A program made the position numbers and the translations under genes. A DNA stretch of 64,000 bases from the IMG/VR virus record IMGVR_UViG_3300047160_009070, positions 1-64,000 of that record. One strand, written 5' to 3'. Origin of the DNA: a virus. Under the pieces are notes generated by a model. That model was not told where the DNA came from. It saw nothing but the letters and a program-made list of their open reading frames with translations, and searched no databases. This document shows, piece after piece, positions 14,365 through 62,112 of this stretch; position 1 is the stretch's first letter, and the number at the start of each line of letters is the position of its first letter.

Positions 14365-15137
14365 ATGGCCGATCGGACCCTCATCGCATGGACCGACCAC
14401 ACCTTCAACCCTTGGATGGGTTGTTTCAAAGTGTCTCAGGGCTGTACTTGACCCACTGCTACGCGGAGACGATGACCAGCGGGCGGATGGGTCTTGACGT
14501 GTTCGGCCATGACACCTCTAAGCGTCAGCGTACGTCTGAGCGGACGTGGAAGAACCCGTTGCGCTGGAACCGCGAAGCCCAGGCGAACAACGTTCCGGCC
14601 AGGACGTTCTGCGCAAGCTTGGCGGACGTGTTCGAGGACGCCCCGGGACCGAACGCTTGGCGCAAAGAGTTGTGGGAGCTGGTGGACGAGTGCCGCTGGC
14701 TGGACTGGCAGATCCTGACCAAGCGCCCGGAGAACATCGCCCGGATGCTCCCGGACGATTGGGGTGACGGCTGGCGCCATGTGTGGCTGGGCACGTCGAT
14801 CGAGGACAACCGGGTTGCGGAGCGCTCGACGATCCTGACGCAGGTGCCGGCGTTCGTGCATTTCGTCAGCTACGAGCCGGCGATCGGTCCCGGCGACGAG
14901 ATCCCGCTTGAGGGTGTCGACTGGTTGATCTGCGGCGGCGAGTCCGGCCCGGGGTTCCGCAAGATGGATTTGGGCTGGGCGATCGACATGTGGGTTCGTT
15001 GCCGCGACGTCGGCGTCCCGTTCTTCTTCAAGCAGGATTCGGGGTATCGCACCGAGATGGGCATTGACGCTTTGGGTGTGGTGGTGCGCGAGTACCCGGT
15101 GTCGTGGGAGCGCCGGGCTGTGCTCGGCCTGTTCTGA
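14365..15137 (+). CDS. DUF5131 (phage Gp37/Gp68, radical-SAM-like) protein interrupted by a 5-nt stop-containing insert
   Basis: SD GAGGAGG; MADRTLIAWTDHTFNPWMGCFKVSQGCT, then TGA, continuing in another frame as HCYAE...FCASLADVF...WQILTKRPEN...VSYEP...WLICGGESG...FFFKQ. Confidence 0.85.
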
Positions 15138-28830: not shown

Positions 28831-29385
28831 ATGTCCATCTCGACCCCAACCCCGACATGGAAGCGGTTTGACACCTATCCGCCTCTGATCGGCGCGCTGC
28901 AGTCCGCCGGCCTGTTCGTCGATCTGACGTCGGCGACCGCGATCAAGGCGATCTTGAAGGGCACGACGGCGCTGGTGACGGGGTCGTGCACCAAGCTGAC
29001 GGTGGCGACACCCACCGGCACTTTGACGCTCGGCTCTGCGTCGATCACCGCCGTGTCGGCTCTCACGAACATCGTGGTCGGGTCCTCGATCCAGGGTGCC
29101 GGTGTTCCGCAGGGAGCCCGGGTCGGTTCGATCAATTCGGTCACGAACGTGATCACGATGGTCGACGTCAACAACAACCCGATCGGCGCGACCGCAGCCG
29201 GCACCGGGGTGACGTTGACGATCAACGTCGGCACCGTGTCCTACACCTGGGGCGGCTCGGATCTGTCGGTAGCGGACACCTACCAGCAGGAGTTCGAGGT
29301 GACGTGGACCGGCGGCGCGATCGAAACGTTCCCGAACGACTCGTACAACACGATCATCGTCAAGCCGGATCTCGAAAACGCCTGA
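28831..29385 (+). CDS. BppU-N-like structural protein
   Basis: KRFDTYPPL..VDLTSAT...GTVSYTW...YQQEFEVTW..IETFPNDSY. Confidence 0.7.
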   Translation: MSISTPTPTWKRFDTYPPLIGALQSAGLFVDLTSATAIKAILKGTTALVTGSCTKLTVATPTGTLTLGSASITAVSALTNIVVGSSIQGAGVPQGARVGSINSVTNVITMVDVNNNPIGATAAGTGVTLTINVGTVSYTWGGSDLSVADTYQQEFEVTWTGGAIETFPNDSYNTIIVKPDLENA

Positions 29386-29419
29386 CTATGATAATGTCTA
29401 AGCCGGACCTCGAGAACGC

Positions 29420-29836
29420 GTGATGGCGATCAGGTTCCTGAAGGAAGCCAGGACCGACACTTGGCGTCTGCTGACCGAGGAGGAACGCGCCGAGATGGTT
29501 CCGGCGGCGGTGGTCGAGAGGCCCCGGTTCGTGTCGCTGGCACTGCGGCAGGACATCGAGGCGCCCAGGATCGGTGAGACGGTGCGCCTGTCGATGACGG
29601 TGGTGGACCTCGAGCAGCTCGAGGGCCCGTCGCTGCGCGGGCGCGCGAAGGCGGACGTCGAACTGGTCGCGTCGCTGTCGGACTCGCTCGGGATCACCCA
29701 TCAGGCGGACGTGGTCCGTGACAACCAGGGCTCCTACCACGCCGACTTTGCGGTGGAGCGCGCCGGCCGGCATGTGTGGGGTGTCTCTACCGTCGGCGCG
29801 AACGCCCAGCTCGCGTTCCACGCAAGGCCCGCCTGA
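29420..29836 (+). CDS. Hypothetical structural protein
   Basis: Ig-like C-half GSYHADFAVERAGRHVW; coupled on both sides. Confidence 0.6.
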   Translation: MMAIRFLKEARTDTWRLLTEEERAEMVPAAVVERPRFVSLALRQDIEAPRIGETVRLSMTVVDLEQLEGPSLRGRAKADVELVASLSDSLGITHQADVVRDNQGSYHADFAVERAGRHVWGVSTVGANAQLAFHARPA

Positions 29837-33957: not shown

Positions 33958-34299
33958 ATGGCGGTTGACGTCGTTCAGGAGGAGTGGCATCCGAGCCACA
34001 TCACGGCCAGGACGGCGCAGGCGATTTCTGACGACATTCGCCGCCAGGTAGACGCCGATCCTGAGCTTGCCGCGCTTGAGGCGCAGCGCTGCTACCGCGA
34101 GTTCAGGGAGCAGCGGTATGAGGCCCGGCGGCACCAGCGCCGGGCTCGTCGTGCGATATTCCGCGCCAAAACGTTCCAGCGCGACCTTGAGGCGCTCGGG
34201 ATCACCGTGATCTTCGAGCTGGGCCCCCGGGAGCGCGCCCGTCAACTCAACGCCACAGAAGGAGGCGACAGTGACAACCAGGCAGCGCAAGCCACCTAG
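33958..34299 (+). CDS. Hypothetical protein
   Basis: 113-aa ORF in the tail operon. Confidence 0.5.
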   Translation: MAVDVVQEEWHPSHITARTAQAISDDIRRQVDADPELAALEAQRCYREFREQRYEARRHQRRARRAIFRAKTFQRDLEALGITVIFELGPRERARQLNATEGGDSDNQAAQAT

Positions 34300-34828
34300 C
34301 GAACAGACGCCGGCTGCGAACGGCGCGGTGCCGGAGGAGGACTCCAGCAAGGTTCTCGATCTGATCAGCCTCACCCCGAGCCGCAAGCTCGTGAGGCTGC
34401 CGACGAAGGACCATCCGGAGGGGGAGACGTTCGAGTTGCGGCTCGTCGACGATTTCGGGATCGAGATGCAGCAGAAGCTGCTCGCATGGAGCCGGCAGTT
34501 CACCAATCTCATGTCGTCGGAGGAGGAGCTTGACGACGACCAGGCGGCACGGATGCGGTTTCTTCTGGAGAGCCTGTTCGAGCAGGTGCTCGGCCCGTCG
34601 CCGGACATGACGAAAACCGAGTTCGCGGACGCGAGGCGGGGTATGGACGACGCGGTTCGCCACCGGGTGGTTCAGGCTTTTTCGTGGGCGCCGGTGCTGG
34701 CGCGAAACGAGTTGCAGACCGAGTTGATCAAGCGGCTGGTGGACAGGAAGTATCTGAAGCAGGAGCAGGTGGACGAGGTGATGGACGAGCTCAGGCTGGA
34801 GTTGACGAGGTCGACTTCGGGGAGTTGA
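34271..34828 (+). CDS. Tail assembly chaperone (gpG-like)
   Basis: SD AAGGAGG; position before tape measure. Confidence 0.7.
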   Translation: MTTRQRKPPSEQTPAANGAVPEEDSSKVLDLISLTPSRKLVRLPTKDHPEGETFELRLVDDFGIEMQQKLLAWSRQFTNLMSSEEELDDDQAARMRFLLESLFEQVLGPSPDMTKTEFADARRGMDDAVRHRVVQAFSWAPVLARNELQTELIKRLVDRKYLKQEQVDEVMDELRLELTRSTSGS

Positions 34829-35187: not shown

Positions 35188-35329
35188 GACGCCGTGTAAC
35201 GCGTTCTGAGCGGCCGGACCGTGTACCGGCCCTTGGCCATGCACACACCCCGCGGGGCGTGACAGGCGCCTGCAGGCGCTGCGAGACGCAGCAAATTGAC
35301 AGGTCGAGGAAAGGAGGTCCGGTACTCTC

Positions 35330-38300
35330 ATGACAGAGTACCTTTGACCTCGGCGATGCCGTCCTCGAGTTCGACGGGGACATCGAGCCGCTCGCGAGGA
35401 AGGTCCAGGAAGCCCACCAGATGGTCAAGACCGGCCTGGACGGAATGGGCCGTGAGATCCAGGGCTTCACCGCACTGGCGATCCGTTCGGGGCAGGAGCT
35501 CGAGCTTGCGTACATCCAGCCGCTGAAGCGAGGCTTCGACGAGCTTTCGCTCGCCGTGTTCGCCTACCACGAGCGTCTGACCGGGGTGATAGGCGTCACG
35601 CACGAGGCTGCGGGCGCGATGCTGCAGCTGGGTGCCGCGTCGTCGCAGATGGCGGAGCAGACCGTCCGTGCGCTCGCCGACGTGCGGGGTGCTGTGGAGA
35701 GCACGGCGCTGCTGATCATCGCGGCTGCCCGCAGCGAGGTTGACGCGATCAACGAGGTGACGGCCGCGTATCTGCGCCAGGCGGCGGCTGCTCGTCTCGC
35801 GGGGGGCAGTGCCGGGGTGACGCTCGCGGCGGGTGCGCTTCCGCTTCCGTCGTTGCGGGCGGGGGTTGCGCCGGCTGCTCTCGGCCCCGCCCCGGGGCAG
35901 CCGCTCGCCGGCAACTACCGGATTTGGGGTTCGCGTGGTGACGCCGCCCCCGGCTCGATGGTGAACCCGGTTGTGGTCGCGATCGAGTCCGGCCAGTACG
36001 CCGGTCTCGGCGCACGCGCCGCGGCGCTCGGGTTCACGGCGGGCGCCCAGCCGTCCGGGTCGATCCTCGATCCGGTCACCGCCCAGGCTTTGCGTGACAT
36101 CGCGCAACGCCAGATCGCTGCGGCGCCGGCGTTGACGCCGGGGGAGATCATCACTGCCGCCAGGGCGCTGCCGCAGGAGGACCTGCGCCGGCTGGTGGGA
36201 ATCCTGGACCGCCCGATCGCCGGCGGCGCCGGTCCACCGATCGACTGGCGGCCGGACCCGACGTTCCGGCGTGCCGTCCAGTCGGTTTTGGCGGGCGGTC
36301 CGTTCGCCGAGCCGAACGTGTCGGTGTCGGGTTTGCAGCGGTCGCTGCAACTGCAGTACACGCAGGCGCTCCAACTCCAGAGACAGCTTCAGCAGGTGGG
36401 TCTGATCGAGTTGCGGTCCGGCGGCGGGTTCCGGGTTGTTCAGCCGAAGGTGCAGGAGTACCAGCGCCTGATGTTCGGCGCGACCGGTCCTGCGTTCCCG
36501 GGCGCCAGCTATGGCCGTGCGCCGACGGGCGAGATGGCCGGGATACCGCAGCCGGCCGAGCGACTCGACATTTTCGGGGCGCTCGCCGAGCAGCAGGCTG
36601 CACAGGAGGCGCAGATCGCACAGCAGCAGGCTGATCTCGCGAGACAGGAGGCGCAACTCGGCCGGCAGATGTCGCTGTTCGAGGGGATGGCCCGCCGCGG
36701 CGGGATCTGGCCCGGTGTCGTGGCCGCGATGGGTCCCGAGCCGCTCGGGCCGTACGGGCCCGTAGGCCGGTTCGCGTACCGGCCTTTGGGGGTTCCGGGT
36801 GAAGCCGAGACCGGGTATGAGGCTCTGAGGGCGGGTGCGACCGGTGCGACTGCCCGCCCGACGTGGATGGGCGGGACGGTCCTGCCGCCTGAGCCGACGG
36901 TCAAGATCGACGCTGCGCAACTCGCGGCGCTTGAGGCTGCTCTGAAGGAGGGCCGGATCAGCCAGACGCAGTTCGATGCGCTGTCCTCCGCGCTCGCGCT
37001 CGGCGGCACCCCCGGTGCCCCCGGCGGGGGAGGCGGAGGCGGAGGGGTTCCCCCGGTGGCTGTCGGTCCACCCGGTGGCGGAGGCGGCGGAGGCGGCCGT
37101 GCCTTGTGGCCTTTGGCGCTGGCTGCTCTGTGGGGACGCCCGACTCTCGGCGCACGAATCCCGTTCACTCCGTTCTCGCTGCCGATGGCCGGGTTCGGAA
37201 GCCTCGGCTCGCTCGCCGGTCTCGGCCCGGAGCATTGGCTGATGACCGCTTTGGGGATCGGCGGGTTCGCTGCCGCCGGCGCCGCCGGCGCGGGTGCGAT
37301 AGCGCTCGGTTCGGCTGGCACGCTCGCGGCCGGTGCCGGCTCGAACGCGGCTGTGATGTCGTCGACGATCAAGGACACCCAGACGCTGTCGCAGGCGATG
37401 ACTGCGGTGCAGACGGCGCAGCAGAACGTGGCGCAGTCCCAGGCCGCGTATGCGGCGGCGGTTCACCAGTTCGGGCGCAACTCGACGCAGGCGACAGCCG
37501 CCGCGAGCCAGCTGACGGGCGCCACCAACACGCTGACGACCGCCCAGCAGAACTACAACAGCACCGTCAGCCAACTCGGAGGCCCGCGCGCCCCGGGTGT
37601 GCAGGCGGAGATCCAGTTGGCGAAACAGACACAGGCGCTCAACAAGTTCTGGGACCAGCAGACGCAGATGGCCCGGGTCGCCGCGGTGCACGTGCTCGAG
37701 CAGGTGGTGCAGCTGGGTCACGACTACGTGCCGCTGGTGGCGCAGGCGGCGCAGCAGAACCTGACGATCATCAACCAGGACATCAAACCGTTGTTCTCAT
37801 GGCTCGAGGGTCCGCAGGGAAGAGGCATCTTCCTGCAACTCGAGGACCAGTTCAAAAGGACTCTGCCGACCGCGATCGACGCGTTCTCCAAGGCGATCGA
37901 GGTTGTGCTGCGGGTCACGCAGGTCGCGTCCCAGTACAGCGGCACGTTCGTCTCCTGGCTCGACAAGTTGGTGAACCGCTTCAACAGCATGTCGAACGTC
38001 CAGTTCGCGAACACGATCCGGCGGCTCGTCGGCGACTTCCGGGACTGGGAGAGGTTCGCGAAGGCGATCGCCACCGACCTGTATCTGCTGTTCAGCCAGG
38101 ACGTCGGCACCGGCAAGTCGATCATCACCACGCTCACCACCATGCTCGAGCATCTCGGCAAGTGGGAGAGCTCAGTGAAGGGGCGCGAGGAGATCCGCAC
38201 GATCTTCGACGTGCATCTGCACGAGGTGCAGGCGCTGCTCGGGATCATGCCGAAGCTGTTCGGCGTGTTCGGCCAGCTCTACATGACGTTGGCGCCGCCG

Positions 38301-41300
38301 CTCACCCAACTGATGACGCTGATCTTGGATGTGGTGAAGGCGCTCGAGCAGATACCCGGTGGTGCGTGGGTGCTCGGTTTGGGGTTGCTGTTCAGCAGGC
38401 TCGGTATTCTCGGCGGTGTCCTCAGAGGTCTCGGACGGGCGCTCGGGATCCTCGGTGCCGGTGAGGCCGTCGCAGCAGCCGGTGGTGTGGCAGCCGGGGG
38501 GGCGGGTGTTGCGGGTGTCGGTGCTGCTGGCGTTGCCGGTGCTGCCGCAGGCGGTGGCCTGCTGGCGAGGATGGCACCGACCGCGATCGCGACACGGTTG
38601 CTGGGAGGGCTGTCCAGGCGTCTCGGGATGGGTGAGGCAAGCGCGCTGCTCGGCTCCGCTGTTCCGGCGCTCGCCGGCACGATCGCGGCGGGTGGTGGTC
38701 TGCTTGCTGGTGACTTCGTCCAGCACCTGTTCGGTCTGCGCGGCGGGACTGGGACGACGGTCGCCGGCGGTGTGGTGGGAGGTTTGCTCGGTGGACTGGC
38801 CTTCGGCCCGTGGGGAGCGGCGATCGGCGCCGGTATCACCTCGGCGCTCCTTCCGACACTCACGCACCTGTTCGATCCTAGCCGTCCGACTCCTCGCCTT
38901 CCGAGGGGCACGGTGGAACGTCCGGTTCTGCCCGGCATGGACACACGGTTCGCTGCGGTGCTGCAGCGGGGACCGGGTGCTCTGAGGGAGTTCATCACGC
39001 AGCCGCGTGAGGTTGTTGGACCGGGAGGCAGAGCGACAATGCTGCCCGGCCAGAGCCTCGCCGATGTTGCTGCGACCAAGGAGGCGGGGGCGGCGCTGGA
39101 CCAGTGGGTGAAGTCCGCCACTAATTCGGCGAACGTTGCCCAGATGAACGTCGGCCAGTTGAAGGCGATGCGCCGCGAGGGGCAGGCGCTACGGGAGATC
39201 TTCCCTGACGCTGCCCCGATCATCAACAAGGCGCTCGGGGATATTCACAGCGGCATCATCGGCGCGATGGTGCCGATGCAGAAGCTCTGGGGCACCGTCA
39301 TCAACCGCTGGCAGGACGACACCTCCAAGGGTCTCGGTTCGATGGTCGACATCTTCAACAGCAACATGCGGCTGATCGACACCAGCGCCGGCCAGGGGTC
39401 GACGCACGCACGCCAGGTAATGCGCGCGAACCTGCAGAAGATGGTGGACGACGTCACCGCCGGGATGGCCGCCGGAACGATCTCGACGAAGGCCGGGATG
39501 GACGCGATCAACAAGGCGATCGCCGAGGGCTCCAAGGCCGGCGCGATCGGGTGGGAGATGGCGACCCACGACCAGTTCACGACGCTGATGGCGTTGCACG
39601 ACGCCCACAAGATCAAGGTGTCGACATACATGCGGGACCTTGGCGGCATATACCGGACCGGGTTCTCGAACATCAAGCAGGACACCGAGAACCAGTCGAA
39701 GGCGATGCACGACTATCTCGACGCGCAGGAGCACAAGGGGCTGCTCACCCACCACGCGGCGATGCAGGCTTGGCACACCTACCAGCTGCAGGCCAACCAG
39801 CAGGAACAGGCCGACATGTCGCACTTCTCCGGCAACATCATCAATGCGCTCGCGAAGGCCGGTGCCGCGTCCGGCGGTGCCGTCGAAGCGATCCTGAAAC
39901 CCCTGCTGCAGGCGCTGAAGGCGCTGGGGGTGTCGTCGTCGAGCGTCAGCCAGGTCGAGGCGGCGATCAAGGACGCCCCCAAGTTCGCCGGCACCTTCCT
40001 GAACGAGGTGACGCAGGGACTGCCGATCGGGATCGGCCCGCAGGCAGCCGGTTCCACACCCGGCGGCGCGATCGGCACCACCACCGGTCACGGCCAGCAC
40101 GGTCTGATGATCCAGTTCGGGCAGCCCGGCCAGCGTGGCCAGGACACCATCCACGCGAACTTCGGCGGCCAGCCGGTGATGGTCGCTCCCGGCGAGGTGG
40201 GGATGGTGCTCACCGGCCAGCAGCAGAACTTCCTGAACACCCGTCTCGCCGACGTCGGTGGCCTCCCCGGCATGTTCTCCACCGTCAATCAGCCGCACGC
40301 GCAGGGTTGGGGCTGGGGTGAGGGATACCAGCGCGGAGGGATGATGCTGTCCTACAGCCAACTCGAGGGGCTGTGGATCAGAGCCGGCGGTCCGCCTGCG
40401 CTCGCGTCGACGATGGCGTCGATAGCGATGGCCGAGTCGGGTGGCCGCACCAACGCGTACAACCCGTCCGGCGCGTCCGGTCTGTGGCAGATCTTGGGGT
40501 TGCCGTTCCCCGGCAACCCGTTCGACCCGATGACGAACGCCAGGATGGCTGTCACAAAGTTCCGCACCCAGGGGCTCGGCGCCTGGGTGACGTACACGTC
40601 CGGCGCCTACAGGAGCTATCTGCACGGCGGGGTGCCTCCGTCGATGACCGCGTTCCCGCACATCCCGGTTCCCCACATCACCGGCACCGGGGCGCTCGCC
40701 GACATCGTCCGCGGCGGCGCGACGATGCTCACCCACGACGCGAACGCGTTCCTTGCACGCCAGGTCGGCCGGATGGCCGGTCGCGCTGGCGCGGGTGTCC
40801 CGTTCACCCACGGGATGCTGACGTTCCCGCTGCCGGCTGGGACGTGGCGCGGCGAGAGCCTCGACATGGGGTGGGACATCGCCGCCGCAGGCCACACACC
40901 CCTGTACGCGGTGGGTGCCGGCACGATCGTCGGCCACGGGATCCCCGGGTTCGGCCCGTGGGCGCCGATCCTCCAACTCGCATCCGGCGCCCGCGTCTAC
41001 TACGGCCACGCCGGTCCCGGCCACGAGCTCCCGGTCGGCACCCATGTCAGAGCCGGCCAGATCCTGGGTGAGGTGGGAGCCGGGATCGTGGGTGTGTCCA
41101 CCGGACCGCATCTCGAGATCGGCTGGTATCCGCCGGGGAGTGCGTCGGGTGCGTCGATGAAGTCGGCGCTCGGGTTCCAGCATGGCGGCATGGTGTTCGC
41201 CCAGCGGGGCCACTTCCCCGGTCAGCATGCACCGGTTGGCCAGACGTTCGCCGGCCAGACAGTCACCGGCCACACCCGGTCGGGGACCGCCGTCTCCGGT

Positions 41301-43031
41301 TCGGGCGCGAGCCGCCTGTACTACTACCAGGGGACCGGCTGGATCACCGGAGCCCAGCTGCAGAACATCTACAACCGCCGTTACGGCCACCATCCCGCTC
41401 CCGGCTCCCCCGGCGCTGTGCATACTGCACCTGTCGTTCATCATCGCCCCGATCCGCTGCTGACGGACATCGTGGATTTCTACGACCAGGCGGGCTTGAT
41501 GGGGCAGGACAGCCCGCGGGGTGTGGGTGTGACGGTCCCCCCGGAGATCAACCTGCTCGGGAGGATCACCGAGCGGATCACCGGCCTTCGCGCCCAGGGC
41601 CTCCCGTTGGGAGGTCCGGTCAGCCTGCTGACGGGTTTGGGGAGGGTGTCGGGCGGAGGGTTCGACGCGATCCAGGCTGCGCTGAACCGGGCGATGTCAA
41701 GAATGACCGCAAGCCAGGCGTACGACCTCGCGCTGGACTACGGCCGTGCGCTGGGACGCCACCCCGCCGCACCCCGGCTGGCTGCGGAGCGCGAGCTCCG
41801 TCTTGACGAGCGTTCGCTGAGCCGTCTGACCGGCGAGATGCACAGGATCAGCGCGGAGCGCAGAAGCGAGCGTGCTCTGATGATGAAGGAGCACGGCAAC
41901 CAGCGAGCTCGTACCGGCCAGCATCTGCGCAAGCTGCGGGACGAGGCGCACAGGGACCATGTGGACGCACAGAAGATCCGTACCGACATCGCCCACGACA
42001 TGCACACCGTCGCCGCCGGGCGTCCCGCCGAGGTTCTCACCACCATCCTCACCCATGCGCTGACCGGCATCTCGAACGTGTTCACCCACCAGCAGGACCA
42101 GGCGAGCACGCTCAGCTCGTTCACCAGCGCGATCGGGAGCGTGCTGCCGAGAACGCCGCTCGCTCAACTCGGCCTGTACGGAACGCCGGGGCGCCGGGCG
42201 CTGGCACGAATGGGCCTCACCCCGCGTGACGCTCGCCTGCTCGAGGGCGGCACCGCGTACGGCGCCCAGATGGTGCAGTACGACATCTTCAGCGACCAAC
42301 TCGCCCAATACCAGCATGACCGGGCGCGTCTCGGCGAGCTGTACCGGCAGGCTTTGAAGACCCACAACAAGAAGCTGCAGAACTCGATCCTCGACGAGAT
42401 CAACACGGTCGACACCGCGATCGCCTCCACCGAAGGGGACCGCCAGACCGCCCTGTTCAACGCGATCCAGGCGAAGGCCGGCCAGATCGGCCTGCCCGCC
42501 CAAAGGATCGCCGACCAAATCACGGGGCTGCAGGCGATCCAGGGACTCGCGCCGGGAGCGAACATCGCCGGTCTGCTCGGCGGCGCGAACATCGTCCAAA
42601 CCCTCGGGCTGGGCGGCGCGCAGCCCGGCACCGGCCTGTCGTATTTCCAGAACCTCGCGTCCGCGCAGGGCGGGACGCTCACCGCCAGCCAGATCGCGGC
42701 CGCCACCGCCGGCGTGAACTCGATGAACGACATCCTCCGCAGCGAGATGGCGCCGCTCCAGAAAGAACTCCAGTATTACGAGCACGAGCTTCCTTCCCTG
42801 TCCGGCACACAGCGCGACACGGTGATCAGCGCGATGAACGGTTTGGCGCAGCAGATCTTCGGGTTGCAGGGCTCGATCGACACGAACACCACGTCGCTGA
42901 ACCAACTCACGGGCGCCACGAACGCGAACACCAGCGCCACCGGCCAGATGACCGGCACCGTCGCCTACGCCTACCAGGGCCAGAACTGGCTGGCGTCGGT
43001 GACCGGTCCGAACGTCACACAGGGAATCTGA
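35330..43031 (+). CDS. Tape measure protein with SLT-like and M23 peptidase domains; +1 frameshift at codon 5
   Basis: SD AAGGAGG, ATG ACA GAG TAC CTT TGA C, then +1 frame DLGDAVLEFDGD joins the 2536-aa ORF; IAMAESGG..ASGLWQI (SLT); DMGWDIA..YYGH..STGPHLE (M23). Confidence 0.9.
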
Positions 43032-61310: not shown

Positions 61311-62112
61311 ATGCGATTCGTGGACCGACCGGGGCCTGCTAGACCGAACATTCTGATCTACGGGCCCCCGTAAGGAACCAAAGGTGGGTAAGACGGCGGG
61401 TGCGTGCTCGTCGGGTTTGGGAACGATCCTGTTCAACCTCGATCTCCCGAACGCGACCCGTTATGCCCGTTCCAAGAAACGCGATCCGGACGGCAGGGTG
61501 ATGGAGGTCGAGTTGCCGCCGTTCGAGGAACGCAAACTCCCGGTCTTCGATCTGATGGGCGAGATCTCCCGGTCGGTCGCCGATCCGCGCCAGGAGGTGG
61601 CGGAGGTGGTGGTCACCGACCCGATGGGCGAGCTTTACCGGCGTCTGCTGGAGGAGGTGTCGAACCGGTCGATCCATCCGACGTTCGATCACCGGCTGTG
61701 GGTGACCACCCAGATCGAGCGTTACTGCCGGTTCCTGTGCGAGCTGCCGACCATTTCGGCGATCTTCGTGTGCCACGAGCTTCCGGTGAAGGACGAGTCG
61801 ACCGAGTCGTTCGAGCGGTTGCCGTTCACCGGCACCACCAACATCAATCTCGGCGCCAAGTTGATGTCGATGGTGGATGTGATCGCCTACGCCGGCGTGT
61901 CGGTGCAGGAGAACGGCGCGAAGGAGTACGGTGCCCAGTTGATCATCGACCAAGGGCGCCGCGGCGGGGACCGGTTCGATTGTCTGGGGGACTATCGCCC
62001 GCTGGATTTGAAGGACTGGTTCGCGGCGATCGCTGGGGCGGAGGTTGCCGATCTCAGCGCTGAGACCAGTAGCGAGGAGCCTGCCGGGAAGCCGGTGGCG
62101 GAGGCGGCGTGA
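61311..62112 (+). CDS. AAA_24/Sak4-like ATPase interrupted by a 10-nt stop-containing insert in Walker A
   Basis: MRFVDRPGPARPNILIYGPP-TAA...KVGKT; VVVTDPMGELY, IFVCHE, MVDVIAY; flanked by exonuclease and SSB-like genes. Confidence 0.85.
62050..62067. repeat. 18-bp palindrome copy 3 (17/18 match)
   Basis: GATCTCAGCGCTGAGACC. Confidence 0.7.

Follow-up and report, generated by a model that had tools for sequence, protein, structure and literature searches.

Stop-triggered recoding as the candidate route to the tape measure protein of a high-GC phage, with two sister sites in the same genome

The stretch of DNA considered here (the window) is the first 64 kb of a 95,319-nucleotide (nt) IMG/VR virus contig, IMGVR_UViG_3300047160_009070, which has a GC content of 66% and carries essentially all of its genes on the + strand. 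Among them is the gene for a tape measure protein (TMP), recognised as such because its open reading frame (ORF) of 2536 amino acids (aa) matches phrog_167 (E = 1.4e-13) and contains M23 peptidase and SLT-like domains; not only its homology to the family but also its location, with chaperone genes on one side and distal tail genes on the other, agrees with this assignment. Our subject is the 5' end of this gene, where a Shine-Dalgarno (SD) sequence and a start codon lead into only five codons and a stop (MTEYL*), and where the remainder of the protein is encoded in a different frame (Table 1). A preliminary description of the locus had interpreted it as a prfB-type +1 frameshift site, and the sequence elements from which it started can all be found: AAGGAGG is followed by ATG ACA GAG TAC CTT TGA C, the shift core CUU UGA C has the main ORF in the +1 frame, and that frame runs into the 2536-aa ORF. 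The TMP frame is closed by TGA at 35331-33 and open from 35334, from where it reads QSTFDLGDAVLEF...; between this point and ATG 35421 it contains no ATG, GTG or TTG, the sole near-cognate codon being ATC 35382. Of the 25 codons upstream of Met 35421 in this frame, 23 end in G or C, which is the coding signature of the genome. The 7-mer CTTTGAC is not rare in itself, as the + strand of the 95-kb contig has 5 copies, where base composition would predict about 3. It is its placement that is non-random: it sits precisely where a five-codon frame led by a ribosome-binding site (RBS) and encoding a family-like MTE.L meets the frame with the rest of the N-terminus.

Table 1. Positions in the window of the features at the start of the tape measure gene and at the two sister sites.
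Feature	Positions	Strand	Remarks
Shine-Dalgarno AAGGAGG	35311..35317	+	12 nt before ATG 35330
Hairpin GAGGUC-C-GGUACUCU, loop CAUGAC, AGAGUACC-UUU-GACCUC	35314..35351	+	-22 kcal/mol, z = -3.4
Five-codon start segment ATG ACA GAG TAC CTT (MTEYL)	35330..35344	+	matches homologue N-termini MTEVL
Take-off/shift codon CUU (Leu)	35342..35344	+	rare: 7% of the genome's Leu codons
UGA stop (35345-47) and C (35348)	35345..35348	+	occupies the A site with CUU in the P site
Candidate landing codon CUC (Leu)	35349..35351	+	7 nt from CUU; resume codon GGC 35352
Tape measure frame	35346..43031	+	entry at GAC 35346 (+1 shift) or GGC 35352 (hop)
First canonical in-frame start ATG, rival start	35421..35423	+	gene callers' choice; AGGAAG 8 nt upstream
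Tape measure ORF	35421..43031	+	from the open reading frame list, 2536 aa
DUF5131 gene, sister site 1	14365..15137	+	ATG 14365 to ACU 14446; UGA 14449 + C; landing ACC 14451; resume CAC 14454; gap 5 nt
AAA_24 (PF13479) ATPase gene, sister site 2	61311..62112	+	ATG 61311 to CCG 61368; UAA 61371; landing CCA 61378; resume AAG 61381; gap 10 nt

The relationship between the two frames becomes apparent when they are compared with other members of the family. An exhaustive HMMER search of 1.8 billion cluster representatives, with the first 400 residues of the open TMP frame as query, returned only five clusters, one of which is the same phage on another contig. The proteins of the other four begin with MTEVLGEAVLDLTADLAPLARK, VTEVLGEAVLDL, MEVLGDAVLDL and MEELGVAILEL; the homologue starts include MTEVLGEAVLDL and VTEVLG.., and the family pattern, M(T)EVLGxAVLDL, is encoded in one frame. 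The frame-0 peptide MTEYL and the sequence (D)LGDAVLEFDGDIEPLARK of the +1 frame are both homologous to this single uninterrupted N-terminus, which indicates that both are parts of the real N-terminus of the TMP. The codons CUU 35342 and CUC 35349 are synonymous and fall in the same codon box, which we take to be assigned to tRNA-Leu(GAG); a hop of 7 nt from one to the other would yield MTEYL-GDAVLEF..., with the junction MTEYLGDAVLEF and exactly the spacing of the homologues, while a +1 shift would yield MTEYL-DLGDAVLEF... Against a profile of the homologue N-termini the hop product scores 61.4 bits, aligning without gaps from profile position 1, the +1 product 58.1 bits, and a protein starting at Met 35421 only 20.3 bits. 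With this last start about 40 bits of homology to the family are lost, and with them the invariant residues L, G, A, L and D.

The same few nucleotides also take part in a predicted hairpin, and just 1 of 200 shuffled sequences folds as well. In it, GAGGUC of the SD region pairs with GACCUC, which comprises gap and landing codon, and GGUACUCU pairs with AGAGUACC, so that the AUG lies in the loop, UUU is bulged, and the 3' arm extends over take-off, gap and landing. If it forms as modelled, this structure should limit initiation. It is a matter of speculation that it might re-form behind the ribosome and help forward movement; a driver based on mRNA pairing has been proposed for T4 gene 60 (bioRxiv 10.1101/2024.12.09.627546). 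We found no RNA structure common to this site and the two sister sites described below, whose own hairpins are not significant.

The first of these sister sites lies in a gene of the DUF5131 family. Its ATG is preceded by GAGGAGG, the first piece encodes MADRTLIAWTDHTFNPWMGCFKVSQGCT, and the gene is split after codon 28, with the remainder in another frame. The first piece covers positions 2-25 of the PF07505 profile and the second, from CAC 14454, positions 26-221; since positions 25 and 26 are contiguous in the profile, exactly five bases are extra in the gene. A -1 shift was considered for this site and rejected, as there is no slippery site and two extra residues would be placed between the last two motif cysteines. 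The exact out-of-frame ORF of 249 aa across the gap is present on two other contigs, one from JGI and one from ENA.

The second sister site is found in the gene of an AAA_24 (Sak4-like) ATPase, likely a recombination ATPase, and its gap lies inside the Walker A motif. From ATG 61311 the gene encodes MRFVDRPGPARPNILIYGPP and then UAA; 10 nt after CCG there is CCA, followed by AAG GTG GGT AAG ACG. The product of a hop between the two proline codons (...YGPPKVGKTAGACS / ...NILIYGPPKVGKTAGACS) aligns without gaps to about 40 homologues carrying GPPK[ST]GKT. A +1 shift was rejected in this case because it would add three residues inside the P-loop. The gap sequence (CCG UAA GGAA CCA) contains AAGGA, which resembles an SD and precedes GTG 61384 by 7 nt. 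An ATPase started at that GTG would be without half of its P-loop. The exact ORF, called from GTG 61384, also occurs on an ENA contig, and such a call is expected elsewhere only if the frame is closed upstream there too.

The three sites, which we refer to as gates, are alike in that an RBS and start codon are followed by a short family-like N-terminus, a stop, and then a codon in the new frame that is synonymous with the one before the stop. All three lie within the first 28 codons of their genes, the genes are unrelated, and gene callers truncated the protein in every case. The take-off and landing pairs are CUU/CUC, ACU/ACC and CCG/CCA, and the A-site stops UGA-C, UGA-C and UAA-G, respectively. 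Each pair combines a rare codon ending in A or U (CTT, ACT and CCA account for 7, 5 and 4% of their codon families) with a common one; at two of the three gates the take-off pair involves a G-U wobble and the landing pair is Watson-Crick, an arrangement that would favour forward re-pairing. Three features of a bypass site, namely take-off and landing codons readable by the same tRNA, a stop immediately 3' of the take-off codon, and a predicted product colinear with homologues, are present. In a genome-wide scan for SD-led short ORFs that end inside a long coding ORF and have a matched codon within 10 nt, ten matches were obtained, and only the TMP, DUF5131 and ATPase genes lacked a usable start in the downstream frame; the remaining matches were ordinary stop/start overlaps or fell inside genes. 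Mid-gene and N-terminal scans for further candidates yielded only ordinary ATGA or GTGA stop/start overlaps.

These results can be interpreted in terms of the following scheme for the TMP gene. Ribosomes would start at AUG 35330 behind AAGGAGG and synthesize fMet-Thr-Glu-Tyr-Leu, at which point CUU would be in the P site and UGA, followed by C, in the A site. Release would then be slow, UGA-C being the slowest termination context in published E. coli work, and peptidyl-tRNA-Leu (anticodon GAG), which is held on CUU by a third-position G-U wobble, could leave this codon and re-pair downstream. Landing would most likely occur on the perfectly matched CUC 7 nt on, with decoding from GGC 35352; a prfB-like +1 slip onto UUU may represent a minority or alternative path. 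Both paths would enter the same frame and produce full-length TMP. Since ribosomes that terminate at the gate would release only the pentapeptide, the gate, together with a hairpin that hides SD and AUG, would keep the output of this very large, low-copy protein low and tied to the efficiency of termination.

Because the TMP N-terminus upstream of Met 35421 is split between frame 0 and the +1 frame at CUU-UGA-C, stop-triggered recoding appears to be the best reading of the locus, and we consider it rather probable that it takes place here by one path or another. The 7-nt hop is favoured over a prfB-like shift on grounds of parsimony, since both sister gates can be repaired only by hops, of 5 and 10 nt, respectively; both paths may nonetheless operate at the TMP gene. 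For the complete proposal, i.e. that TMP is made by stop-triggered programmed recoding at one of three gates of this phage and that the 7-nt hop is the most likely path, we see about an even chance. The re-pairing itself, with its path, its efficiency and any regulatory role, we infer from the sequence.

A number of observations weigh against recoding at this site and temper the preference for a hop. The preliminary description had looked to conservation of the site in related tape measure genes, and the homologues do not have it: in all four homologue groups, which are 29-36% identical to the TMP, the N-terminus is encoded without interruption in one frame. All other contigs on which the phage was found are identical in sequence; they argue against an artefact of a single assembler and do not bear on evolutionary conservation; moreover, coverage of 35330-35351 by the second, 1923-nt JGI contig is not confirmed. 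A nascent-peptide signal of the T4 gene 60 type is missing at codon 5, no SD-like stimulator is found 3 nt upstream of CUU, and short peptidyl-tRNAs drop off easily, so that efficiency may be very low. Finally, the hop outscores the +1 shift by a small margin, 3.3 bits.

The nearest competing explanation is a pure prfB-type shift in which tRNA-Leu would move from CUU to UUU while UGA-C awaits release factor 2 (RF2), yielding the product MTEYLDLGDAVLEF... and making the TMP level a report of RF2 activity. The E. coli prfB core is UAU CUU UGA C, and the 10 nt UAC CUU UGA C differ from it only in a synonymous Tyr codon; no +1 mechanism is better documented than re-pairing from CUU to UUU, the +1 frame has an open, coding sequence from 35346 on, and its product still retains most of the family score given above. 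An efficient prfB site is, however, defined by an SD-like element (AGGGGG/GGAGG) 3 nt 5' of CUU, which pairs with 16S rRNA. The purine run previously noted at that distance turns out to be ACAGAG (positions -9 to -4), of which only GAG is shared with the SD consensus and can pair accordingly, and the real SD lies 24 nt upstream. The +1 product also contains 2 residues found in none of the four homologue groups, a 1-nt shift would leave both sister gates unrepaired and thus call for a second mechanism in the same phage, and the stop at one of these gates is UAA, which is read by RF1 as well and is not specific for RF2. Of the original prfB-type interpretation, therefore, what survives is a stop-triggered event with the N-terminus split at CUU-UGA-C; the stimulator does not, and a 7-nt hop accounts for the site at least as well. 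We regard a pure +1 shift as unlikely, while the TMP gate may plausibly sense RF2. A simpler possibility is that there is no recoding, the pentapeptide being the product of a small upstream ORF and TMP being translated from AUG 35421, either directly by means of AGGAAG or by re-initiation, with the conserved 25-30 N-terminal residues left as a recent relic. This AUG is the only canonical start, the weak SD-like AGGAAG is well spaced from it, gene callers chose it on two contigs, and two homologue groups have the methionine at an internal position. Yet such a start would abandon the roughly 40 bits of family homology upstream of it, in a region whose codon bias is fully coding, and would reduce the frame-0 match to MTE.L to a coincidence. 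The same explanation fails at the sister sites, where it leaves the ATPase without half of its P-loop and the DUF5131 protein without two of three cysteines, and we hold it to be decidedly improbable.

It could also be argued that the extra bases reflect an error (insertion of one T into CTT GAC, or of 7 nt) or an inactivating mutation in a dead phage. A single extra T in CTTGAC would create the motif automatically, and variant or faulty assemblies do exist, as another contig of the same phage has a 20-nt deletion inside the TMP gene. On the other hand, the three interruptions, 5, 7 and 10 nt in length, are neither homopolymer nor typical sequencing errors, and each opens with a stop whose immediately preceding codon is matched by a synonymous one where reading resumes, a layout expected by chance with a probability of about 0.002 per site (rough estimate). 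An error special to one assembly is unlikely, to judge from the proteins of other assemblies, which imply the same sequence at both sister sites; and decay is at odds with about 95 kb of otherwise intact, cleanly coding sequence, with ORFs of 2565, 1437 and 1121 codons. Artefact or decay is in our estimation the least probable of these explanations, and both it and a start at Met 35421 are weakened by the existence of two sister gates. As for the assemblies themselves, on the second JGI contig (1923 nt) gene calling places the TMP start at the same Met, and 148 residues are identical. The contig of protein P0002, after 148 identical residues, reads the sequence in another frame at 35865-35884, as if the 20 nt between GGGCGGGG and CCCCGCCCC were deleted; this difference reflects a variant or else misassembly at a GC-rich repeat.

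Other mechanisms were considered and rejected. Reassignment of UGA does not apply, as TGA ends most genes and the frame changes at each gate in any case. Suppressor or expanded-anticodon tRNAs are not encoded by the phage, which has only three tRNA genes, for Met, Arg(TCG) and Gln(CTG), none of them decoding Leu, Thr or Pro. A run of three T is too short for transcriptional slippage, and the sole candidate for a non-canonical in-frame start, ATC 35382, is downstream of conserved residues. With regard to a homing-endonuclease cassette, the vicinity of the DUF5131 and ATPase sites contains no HNH or GIY-YIG domain, and no Pfam or PHROG family was matched by the ORFs upstream of TMP.

Among known recoding systems, the closest parallel to the gates is provided by Streptomyces phage Hau3's gene for the large terminase, with two 10-nt coding gaps, and by its counterpart in an S. 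catenulae prophage, with a 7-nt gap; bypassing there, a candidate case of regulation, is supported by a junction peptide from mass spectrometry in E. coli (PMC10732093). As in the present case, a high-GC phage has gaps of 7-10 nt that shift the frame inside a conserved protein, a slow A-site codon follows the take-off codon, local RNA structure surrounds the site, and the bypass product is colinear with homologues where a 1-nt shift would add residues. The two differ in that the A-site codon of Hau3 is a rare sense codon, UUA (read by the bldA tRNA), and those of our phage are stops (UGA, UGA, UAA); in that Hau3 has the gaps in one gene and our phage has gates near the start of three; and in that there is no SD-like element just 5' of the TMP gap. 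With E. coli prfB the TMP site shares the core of Tyr codon, CUU, UGA and C, the position of the main ORF in the +1 frame, and competition with release at UGA. It lacks the AGGGGG-type SD, belongs to another gene, is not conserved in homologues, occurs at codon 5 rather than codon 25-26, and offers, by its matched CUC 7 nt downstream, a hop for which prfB has no need.

T4 gene 60 likewise has a stop directly after the take-off codon, a matched landing codon, RNA structure at take-off, and two frames that give one essential protein. Its gap is 50 nt as compared to 7 nt, and at the TMP gate take-off and landing use synonymous codons, not identical ones, the hairpin is strong but of different geometry, no nascent-peptide signal is possible with 5 residues, and no homing-endonuclease gene was found adjoining any of the three sites. 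In mechanism the proposed hops would be most similar to the synthetic 'stop-hops' engineered in E. coli, which are of low efficiency (Weiss et al. 1987, as cited in PMC5009743 and PMC10732093): there too, peptidyl-tRNA leaves the codon preceding a stop and re-pairs with a matched one a few nt downstream. Natural use of such short hops is hardly documented (PMC5009743). The -1 frameshift of the G/GT tail assembly chaperone is comparable as a case of recoding in the tail module adjoining TMP, but gene, direction and purpose are different, G/GT serving to fix the ratio of two products.

In our contig a candidate G/GT region is found separately from the TMP site, at about 34819-34828. A 185-aa ORF at 34271..34828, with its own SD and GTG 34271, ends with TGA 34826-28, and after 34828 the coding signal persists in the -1 frame as far as 35187, with no start that is convincing. 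The segment 34271-35187 seems likely to be a G/GT-type -1 pair upstream of TMP; the slip site could be the GGGG run at 34819-22, before a rare AGU codon. A non-coding spacer of 142 nt (35188-35329) separates this chaperone region from the TMP start, and neither spacer nor site contains a consensus promoter, terminator or Rfam family. More generally, terminase, portal, protease and capsid genes lie upstream of TMP; it is flanked by small tail-module ORFs upstream and by ORFs of 1437 and 1121 aa downstream.

The contig has no close relatives among GenBank phages or in IMG/VR. Megablast and tblastn searches of GenBank phages detected no DNA relatives, the terminase query giving one weak match only, and no related loci were found in viral, metagenome or genome contigs with the TMP N-terminus, proteins P0002, P0003 and P0004, an alignment or the terminase as queries; a word-index protein search with the TMP N-terminus also gave no match. 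Some further features of the genome were recorded. Among about 17,500 codons sampled over the whole contig, TTA occurs 0 times. With respect to the tRNA genes (e.g. 72428-72522), Arg(TCG) is odd and lies directly after the capsid gene, and Gln(CTG) is unusually long, at 95 nt. At 29362-29423 there is an imperfect direct repeat of 24 nt: the upstream gene ends with ...KPDLENA*, these seven residues recur, with three synonymous changes, in a short ORF, MIMSKPDLENA*, whose TGA overlaps the following gene's ATG. This repeat may be a recombination scar or a device for translational coupling.

Natural short-distance bypassing has barely been documented, the known instances being T4 gene 60, a candidate in phage Hau3, and yeast mitochondria. 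A 2016 review by Atkins and colleagues (PMC5009743) points to how few natural cases there are, and to the search for ones that are regulatory rather than means of repairing a selfish insert. Here three unrelated genes of one phage, an essential structural gene among them, carry the same compact gate. It is possible, if a little short of an even chance on the evidence of these sequences, that the gates constitute a small 'regulon' of stop-triggered hops of 5, 7 and 10 nt, in which the yields of the DUF5131 protein, the likely recombination ATPase and the tape measure protein would be set by the speed of host termination at UGA and UAA. If true, regulatory stop-hops would for the first time be known as a natural set beyond mitochondria and the single-gene cases in phages. 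There is also a bearing on annotation, as gene callers truncated all three proteins. If confirmed, the gates would offer a simple, reporter-testable system in which to learn what makes ribosomes hop 5-10 nt across a stop when no nascent-peptide signal is present, and could show whether phages read the termination capacity of their hosts.

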